A stretch of 5,668 nt of DNA from a virus (taxonomy: Duplodnaviria > Heunggongvirae > Uroviricota > Caudoviricetes). Numbering within the stretch: the first letter of the stretch is position 1; the number at the start of each line of letters is the position of its first letter. This document shows, one piece after another, positions 1,736 through 2,050 of this stretch. The stretch lies in IMG/VR virus record IMGVR_UViG_2917855067_000002; one strand, given 5' to 3'. The notes under the pieces were generated by a model. That model saw only the letters and a program-made list of their open reading frames with translations, had not been told where the DNA came from and did no database searches. The position numbers and the translations under genes were made by a program.

Positions 1736-2050
1736 ATGGCTAAATCAGCAGCAGAGCGCAAAGCCGATCAGAGAGCCAAGCAAGCATCATCCGGTATGCG
1801 TAAGCTGGAGCTTGTACTTGATGCTCAGGAAATTGAAATGCTGGAGCGTAACTGTGCCACGCGTCGCTTCAGGCGTGCGCCTTACGAGTTTGGTGAGTAC
1901 ATCGCGTTACTGAGCCGCCAGGATGATGCACTTGTGCGCTGGCGTATAAAATCGATCAGCATAAAACGTTGCGGTAAGTGCGGCGAGAGAGTTCCTGTTA
2001 ATTCATGCCCGTGTAATGGTGACTCACAATGCTGGGTGACCAAAGGCTGA
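1736..2050 (+). CDS. Hypothetical small protein, 104 aa, with a basic/acidic N-terminal region and a C-terminal Cys-rich motif (CGKCG...CPCNG...C), a putative zinc ribbon; prophage accessory gene
   Basis: ORF with AGGA at 1724..1727, eight nucleotides upstream of the ATG at 1736. It has four to five cysteines in a CxxC-N10-CxC arrangement and is followed by an intrinsic terminator. It lies where lambda carries its ea genes, upstream of xis in the leftward operon. An Ea8.5-like zinc-finger relationship is only a guess. Confidence 0.6.
   Translation: MAKSAAERKADQRAKQASSGMRKLELVLDAQEIEMLERNCATRRFRRAPYEFGEYIALLSRQDDALVRWRIKSISIKRCGKCGERVPVNSCPCNGDSQCWVTKG

Follow-up and report, generated by a model that had tools for sequence, protein, structure and literature searches.

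The open reading frame (ORF) at 1736..2050 of the window, which here means the whole stretch of 5,668 nucleotides that was analyzed, is a real gene, conserved far beyond chance, and is a truncated member of PHROG 536, a catalogued and unstudied phage family. The N-terminal half of its 104-residue product is probably a ribbon-helix-helix (RHH) DNA-binding domain, and its C-terminal part carries a conserved Cys4 site. The genes of most full-length homologues have a palindrome, TGAC-NN-GTCA, that overlaps the stop codon or follows it directly. The explanation that best covers the whole, which we regard as evenly balanced, is that the RHH-Cys4 protein binds TGAC-NN-GTCA at operon boundaries and that the window copy is a deletion derivative.

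The gene, its family and its prophage setting

A lambdoid prophage is inserted here at the lambda attachment site beside ybhC, and the window covers its int-proximal end. Between 2529 and 3920, the window shares 98% identity with xis-int of lambda and with the attP arm as far as the core. Contigs of unclassified Escherichia strains (E1V33 and E2593, for example) are collinear with it at 98-99% over 237-5367. The gene order is an Invasin_D4-like ORF (755..1399), a humD pseudogene remnant (~1571-1715), the ORF 1736..2050, the ORF 2115..2459, xis and int. The ORF 1736..2050 is part of the early-left region and is two genes upstream of xis. The corresponding region of lambda contains ea8.5 and orf55, which confirms the earlier placement of the ORF in the slot where lambda has its ea genes. 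The features discussed in this study are as follows.

1571..1715, + strand: humD/UmuD-like (S24 peptidase) pseudogene remnant, directly upstream of the ORF 1736..2050
1724..1727, + strand: putative Shine-Dalgarno-like AGGA, 8 nt before the ATG, as read from the sequence
1736..2050, + strand: gene for the 104-aa protein with a predicted RHH domain and a Cys4 site, a 3'-truncated allele of PHROG 536, with an ATG start
1760..1939, + strand: basic arm and predicted YbfE-like RHH domain, residues 9-68, with strand 22-28, helix 30-43, an inserted loop and helix 52-75
1970..2032, + strand: putative Cys4 metal-binding knuckle, residues 79-99, C79-x2-C82-x8-C91-x7-C99
2048..2050, + strand: stop codon TGA, made at the deletion junction 2049/2050, where the TGG of Trp105 became TGA
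2078..2097, + strand: terminator-like hairpin and T-run, homologous to the hairpin after lambda orf55 (lambdap35)
2115..2459: 114-aa ORF between the gene 1736..2050 and xis, PHROG 1229 (function unknown), E 2e-51
3893-3920: lambda-type attL junction, in which the phage arm equals lambda attP up to the core and is followed by host sequence on the ybhC side
3968..5251: ybhC

The 104-aa ORF with its Lys/Arg/Glu-rich N-terminus is present as described in the initial annotation. Searches of a 90%-identity protein set identified 447 homologues at E <= 0.001, and at 50% identity the family comprised ~230 clusters. Its pairwise dN/dS values were 0.1-0.3, and 52 of the 86 nucleotide differences between the window and epsilon15 were at third positions of frame 1736. 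The overlapping ORF 1596..1913, which had been raised as the frame that might be conserved and expressed instead, matched UmuD-like profiles only over its first 39 codons and gained stop codons in TL-2011b, epsilon15 and AH07. In addition, PGAP labels the corresponding stretch of E. coli prophages a partial S24 peptidase/HumD pseudogene. The ORF 1596..1913 is an out-of-frame run-on of the humD pseudogene, and the third-position excess together with the stops in the competing frame identifies frame 1736 as the conserved one. In the record of phage Chlobot (PP925838, 4004-4482), 'UmuD-like protein' is the name given to the out-of-frame humD run-on, and the real gene is called for no more than its last 46 aa, as a 'transcriptional regulator'. 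This gene call is a mis-annotation. The same 46-aa fragment is found in BFVD as A0A8S5P4C6, where it is named 'ubiquitin-binding zinc finger protein'.

The window protein matched PHROG 536 with an E value of 2.6e-45, of which residues 1-104 were aligned to profile positions 2-107 of 115. Members of this family include epsilon15 gp49, TL-2011b gp20, N15 gp46, ZF40 gp22 and the homologues of phiV10 and phiKO2, and further homologues were found in Pantoea phage AH07, in P2-like Yersinia phages and in Aeromonas and Vibrio phages. The homologues of epsilon15 and TL-2011b were 72-88% identical to the window protein over the whole 104 aa, and the identities of the N15-type homologues were ~38%. Similar to the window protein, epsilon15 gp49, N15 gp46 and ZF40 gp22 possess the RHH half and the Cys4 motif, and their genes are late in an early operon. 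Different from the window protein, however, these homologues are 108-116 aa long with a GWHExKLxV tail, and their genes have TGACNNGTCA at the stop codon; neither the tail nor the palindrome is present in the window allele. The PHROG 536 label 'transcriptional regulator' is a prediction, and no functional study of the family was found in the literature (epsilon15 gp49, N15 gp46, YbfE and RepB-like proteins). One phage record labels the region NinX. P22 NinX is also 112 aa long, the norm for PHROG 536, and its sequence is unrelated.

Several other observations were made in the window. The 114-aa ORF 2115..2459 has relatives that are common in HK022-, mEp- and Stx-type phages, and it had no match in Pfam, NCBIfam or PADLOC. 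The 3' end of an IS3-family transposase gene at 1-236 (ORF 67..273) is the only foreign part within 1-5367. Similarity to related prophages begins at 237, so the IS was inserted into or truncated the early-left operon, and the breakpoint at 236/237 adjoins a DNA polymerase III theta (HolE)-like gene fragment. Positions 280-530 and 1486-1600 were also considered as IS debris truncating the prophage. This reading was dropped because 237-5367 is collinear with prophages that keep early-left genes. Downstream of ybhC are REP-like palindromic repeats (5267-5367), at the end of which the collinearity with relatives stops, followed at 5380-5668 by a second IS that looks IS3-family/IS911-like, of which the left end is present together with orfA (ORF 5441..5638). 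Moreover, a perfect 34-nt inverted repeat (497-530 and 1485-1518), with weaker arms at 473-492/1556-1575 and 491-504/1545-1558, bounds an AT-rich cassette of 954 nt that encodes the 214-aa ORF 755..1399, in which Pfam recognizes an Invasin_D4 domain (E 3.5e-8). The remnant of the humD pseudogene lies shortly downstream of the right arm of this repeat. Five related prophage contigs have the cassette in the same arrangement and orientation, and no invertase was visible. The cassette could be an inverted duplication that resulted from cassette insertion, or an invertible segment. Finally, a LexA-box-like CTG-N10-CAG was found at 1531-1546, the count of which was at chance level (2 found versus 1.4 expected).

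The predicted ribbon-helix-helix half and the Cys4 site

Comparison of the family profile with E. coli YbfE by hhalign aligned residues 9-68 with residues 38-92 of YbfE at a probability of 91.9% (E 7e-7). The YbfE model of NCBIfam, NF008671, was matched by 20 of 35 family members with a best E value of 1.2e-5. The window protein alone scored only 16.8 bits on this model (E 0.0066), below the equivalog cut-off of 62 bits, which counts against the best explanation. By sequence, the window protein is related to YbfE at the domain level and is not a YbfE orthologue. YbfE is without a Cys4 module, and its loop between helices A and B is 5 residues shorter than that of the window protein, a difference that also speaks against the best explanation. 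YbfE is a LexA-regulated RHH domain protein that is listed only as DNA-damage-inducible (PMC6590174). Weak matches to the Pfam model RHH_1 were found in 3 of the 35 family members, and weak matches to TacA1 were found too. The window protein itself had no Pfam match at E <= 1.

The AF2 models had pLDDT values of 79.8 for the window protein and 83.8 for a full-length relative. The predicted monomer has three helices (5-18, 30-43 and 52-75), an extended segment at 21-28 between the first two, and a Cys region rich in loops. Foldseek searches of PDB and BFVD returned nothing significant except the 46-aa fragment of the same protein. The top structural neighbours included many RHH antitoxins, such as TacA, ParD and MazE. 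Given its relationship to YbfE and the layout of the AF2 model, the protein is therefore termed an RHH DNA-binding domain with a Cys4 metal knuckle, and we consider that its N-terminal half probably is such a domain.

Characterized RHH proteins are dimers that read short symmetric or repeated DNA sites. By analogy with them, the window protein would dimerize via paired N-terminal strands and would contact a short symmetric site through the major groove. The fold predicted for it and the dimeric DNA reading to be expected are those of Arc and Mnt of P22, CopG, omega and MetJ; its sequence shows no significant similarity to theirs. Compared with these classical RHH repressors, the window protein has an additional N-terminal helix, a long helix B and the Cys4 domain. 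Moreover, different from those of the classical repressors, the window gene is without its own upstream promoter and operator, and the candidate site is at the 3' end of the gene. Proteins of PF10723 (RepB-RCR_reg) have a similar basic N-terminal arm ('ERK..QR.R') followed by an RHH domain, but they lack the Cys4 domain. The window protein had no match to PF10723 at E <= 1, a few Aeromonas relatives matched it faintly, and one phage record names a homologue RepB-like.

The C-terminal part contains five cysteines, as the initial annotation stated, but the spacing given there (CGKCG-N10-CPCNG-N4-C) was incorrect, the real one being CGKCG-x7-CPCNG-x3-C. Four of the five are conserved family-wide. 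Among 97 divergent representatives, C79, C82, C91 and C99 were conserved at 92-98%, and C93 was not conserved, as position 93 was mostly Phe. The earlier suggestion of a zinc-binding nucleic-acid module agrees with these results as far as the metal-binding and nucleic-acid-binding type is concerned, given the Cys4 site and the RHH domain, but its more specific form, a zinc ribbon, is not supported. There is only one CxxC knuckle, and the second cysteine pair is C-x7-C, so the two knuckles of a zinc ribbon are not present. Neither the window protein nor the family members matched a zinc-ribbon model of Pfam, and no significant match to such a fold was found by sequence or structure. A sequence-profile search of PDB yielded only non-significant hits to the zinc-binding ribosomal proteins eS27 and S27ae (E 1.9-7.5).

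The AF2 confidence of the Cys region was 66-76 in the truncated protein and ~91 with the eight-residue tail present. This rise suggests that, in the model, the C-terminal tail packs on the Cys4 knuckle. Zinc is the likeliest metal at the site. The knuckle would most likely hold a structural Zn and form a small second domain with the tail, which could serve oligomerization or contacts with partners. Alternatively, the four cysteines could ligate an Fe-S cluster, in which case the protein would be a DNA-binding regulator that senses redox state or oxygen and resembles the WhiB type. The irregular spacing of the conserved cysteines (C-x2-C-x8-C-x7-C) and weak matches of 6 of the 35 members to a 4Fe-4S domain model, with a best E value of 0.015, are in line with this alternative. 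These matches are far below significance, however, the weak similarity extends also to the zinc-binding eS27 and S27ae, and small Cys4 modules of phages are usually structural zinc sites. An Fe-S cluster is thus improbable.

Lambda Ea8.5 resembles the window protein in being small, in containing Cys and in having its gene in the early-left operon, upstream of xis. The remark in the initial annotation that the two do not match proved right, as BLASTP gave an E value of 24 over 3 residues. Ea8.5 is a fused homeodomain/zinc-finger protein, whereas the window protein is a predicted RHH protein without sequence similarity to it.

The location of the family gene varied among the phages. In some it lies near xis in early-left operons and in others within the nin region; it can also close the early operon ahead of the terminase genes, follow gpA, as in P2-like phages, or stand among the methylase genes of ZF40. 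Whichever gene precedes it, its start usually overlaps that gene's stop. The downstream neighbour was orf114 in the window and DUF2513, terminase, DUF3850 or Rem-like genes or a terminator in other contexts. No conserved partner gene was found, the neighbours being different in every context examined, and neither the window protein nor a full-length relative had a PADLOC match at E <= 1. These two results argue against an antitoxin and do not support an anti-defence role.

An RHH antitoxin of a type II toxin-antitoxin pair would fit the structural neighbours TacA, ParD and MazE. This reading was rejected because no partner gene is conserved; moreover, the gene usually ends its operon. We consider it very improbable indeed. 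The proposal of the initial annotation that the protein acts in anti-defence or host takeover, for which no evidence was found, would have it work through protein-protein contacts with the Cys4 site as the interaction surface. Accessory early regions often hold counter-defence genes, the neighbours of the family gene are often methyltransferase genes, and Aca14 is a precedent of an RHH protein that regulates an anti-defence operon (PMC13551039). Against it, besides the empty PADLOC search and the lack of a conserved partner or target gene, stands that the best-supported domain is a DNA-binding fold and that no acr-like genes were seen adjacent. In addition, regulators of the Aca14 type are associated with an acr or anti-defence operon and an inverted repeat over their own promoter, whereas genes of PHROG 536 are mostly without their own promoter and without recognized acr neighbours. 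Such a role has therefore only an outside chance.

Truncation of the window allele

The norm for the family is a protein of 112 aa that ends in ..CWVTxGWHExKLxV, in which the Leu is nearly invariant, and the window protein ends at G104. Comparison with phage Chlobot shows a deletion of 694 bp at 2049/2050 of the window. It took away the last eight codons of the gene, a DUF2513 gene and the greater part of a 55-aa ORF, and the TGACATGTCA palindrome seen in full-length homologues went with these codons. The hairpin at 2078-2097 also follows homologues of the 55-aa orf of lambda (lambdap35); it was brought beside the gene by the deletion and is therefore not the gene's own terminator. Thus, the initial annotation was wrong to read an intrinsic terminator of the gene and a separate unit here, as the hairpin belongs to the downstream module. 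The ORF itself had been recognized correctly, and the truncation of this copy had been overlooked.

The identical 104-aa allele was intact on at least 16 contigs, which are lambdoid prophages with full early-left gene sets and at least three integrase types. A 104-aa allele that is 97% identical was also found in E. marmotae. Three residues of the window protein, P45F, G46R and I60S, differ at positions that are otherwise uniform in nearly all close relatives. Sister copies in some E. coli have internal stops, and dN/dS against the closest full-length relative, Chlobot, was ~1.4 on only 6 substitutions. Constraint in the sublineage of the window looks relaxed, which also weighs against the best explanation.

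It is also possible that the window ORF is a decaying remnant, open and functionless, an outcome that we regard as somewhat unlikely. The truncation takes the nearly invariant L110 together with the palindrome, and the AF2 confidence of the Cys domain falls as described above. The internal stops of the sister copies, the dN/dS value, the humD pseudogene in front of the gene and the IS3-family element that cuts the operon at 236/237 point in the same direction. The persistence of the exact allele on the contigs above and in near-identical form in E. marmotae, however, argues against decay, as do the intact RHH domain, the four conserved cysteines and a good ribosome-binding site, and the small number of substitutions limits the dN/dS figure. 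Under the deletion-derivative reading, the window copy would be a product of the deletion that sits behind the humD pseudogene without residues 105-112 and the palindrome, and its function may be weakened or orphaned.

The palindrome at the 3' end of the gene and its candidate role

Of 35 full-length homologues, 28 have TGAC-NN-GTCA overlapping the stop codon or directly behind it. In 22 of these 28, the gene's own TGA forms the first three bases of the palindrome. In Chlobot, the palindrome is within ~10 nt after the gene. Neither the window nor the identical allele at another locus (L107) has it. The two central bases were AT in most enterics, CT in Pantoea, TG in N15 and GC in the Yersinia clade. 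The version of the Yersinia clade, TGTGACGCGTCACA, is a perfect 14-mer palindrome with a second half-site ~30 nt further on, and the change between AT and GC at the centre preserves the symmetry. The sequence downstream of the palindrome showed no obvious conservation between loci. The gene and the motif occur together in unrelated phages, including the early-left and nin regions of lambdoid phages, P2-like phages after gpA, N15 and ZF40.

Copies of the palindrome were counted in four sampled genomes. Epsilon15 contained 3 perfect copies and 3 copies with one mismatch versus 1.6 expected (reached in 0 of 100 shuffles). Four of the six are at gene or operon ends, and sites were found after terL and at the stops of gp18, Rz and gp49. 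The genes gp18 and Rz (one mismatch), whose stop codons are within the TGACATGTCA motif at 19518 and 26619, are the last in their operons. ZF40 contained 7 copies versus 1.6 expected. In TL-2011b, a second perfect copy at 32283 is after ant and directly before a GGCCGC..GCGGCC terminator. P22, which is without the gene, had no perfect copy. The palindrome is thus a candidate operator of the protein, for instance GTGACATGTCAC for epsilon15 gp49, although the link between the two is correlative.

In the IMG/VR sample, the stop codon of the family gene was inside the motif at only 16 of 82 sites, and a few more sites were within ~10 nt of the gene. Many other copies adjoin a GGCCGCGAAAGCGGCC hairpin or sit between terL and a variable convergent gene. 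The composite of hairpin and palindrome recurs in many IMG/VR contigs. The perfect co-occurrence of hairpin and palindrome with the gene in complete phage records was at first considered as independent evidence, and it was dropped because all of those phages are epsilon15-like and share it by common descent.

These results bear on a serious rival to the proposed operator, namely that the palindrome serves temperate phages of enterobacteria as an independent element of punctuation or as a recombination boundary (part of bidirectional terminators, for example, or a mosaic joint), and that the protein binds something else. The many IMG/VR copies away from the gene, which at the same time weaken the best explanation, are what this rival would lead one to expect, and so are the copies that abut the hairpin or lie between terL and the convergent gene. 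Likewise, the stops of the unrelated epsilon15 genes gp18 and Rz inside the motif fit a recombination-boundary element equally well, and the common descent of the epsilon15-like phages confounds the co-occurrence in complete phages on which an operator might otherwise be argued. On the other hand, the motif accompanies the gene into unrelated phage types and positions, its centre changed with symmetry kept in the divergent Yersinia clade, and it is over-represented in genomes that carry the gene and not in P22. We therefore hold an independent element to be quite possible, while leaning against it.

A LexA box with the consensus CTGT-N8-ACAG was observed after the palindrome, ~40-60 nt past the gene, at three loci (L109, L110 and L116), and a LexA box was also found ~100 nt after the gene in a Yersinia phage (L005). 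These boxes lie within promoter-like sequence of the next gene. With the LexA-regulated YbfE and the humD remnant, they make a link of the gene to the SOS response possible.

In the preferred reading, in which the palindrome is the cognate site, the product of the gene would be a small phage early protein made up of a basic arm, a YbfE-like RHH domain, a long helix and the Cys4 knuckle. The gene would be a single-gene accessory module, placed as the last or a late gene of early operons and usually coupled translationally to the gene before it. Its most likely target would be the palindrome that overlaps its own stop in full-length homologues and recurs at 3' ends in epsilon15 and TL-2011b. Bound there, the protein may act as a regulator that marks or controls operon boundaries, by a roadblock, by modulating read-through or by acting on adjacent promoters. 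A more far-reaching and rather unlikely form of this reading is that the RHH-Cys4 family and the palindrome constitute an undescribed phage system for punctuating or insulating operons, of which gene and site move as a cassette and the window is a deletion variant.

For the window itself, the results are mostly clarifying, as the Cys-rich ORF is genuine, truncated and not an analogue of Ea8.5. They also correct public annotations, namely the split call in Chlobot and the name of the 46-aa fragment in BFVD. For PHROG 536, which spans hundreds of enterobacterial, Yersinia, Aeromonas and Vibrio phages and prophages, they provide a domain-level description, a YbfE-like RHH domain, as predicted, followed by a conserved Cys4 knuckle. 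The association with the palindrome is the one result that merits experimental follow-up, as a candidate binding site could reveal how phages mark the boundaries of transcription units or mosaic modules. If the cassette hypothesis is true, punctuation by roadblock, termination control or recombination at module boundaries would be carried by a cassette shared by unrelated temperate phages.
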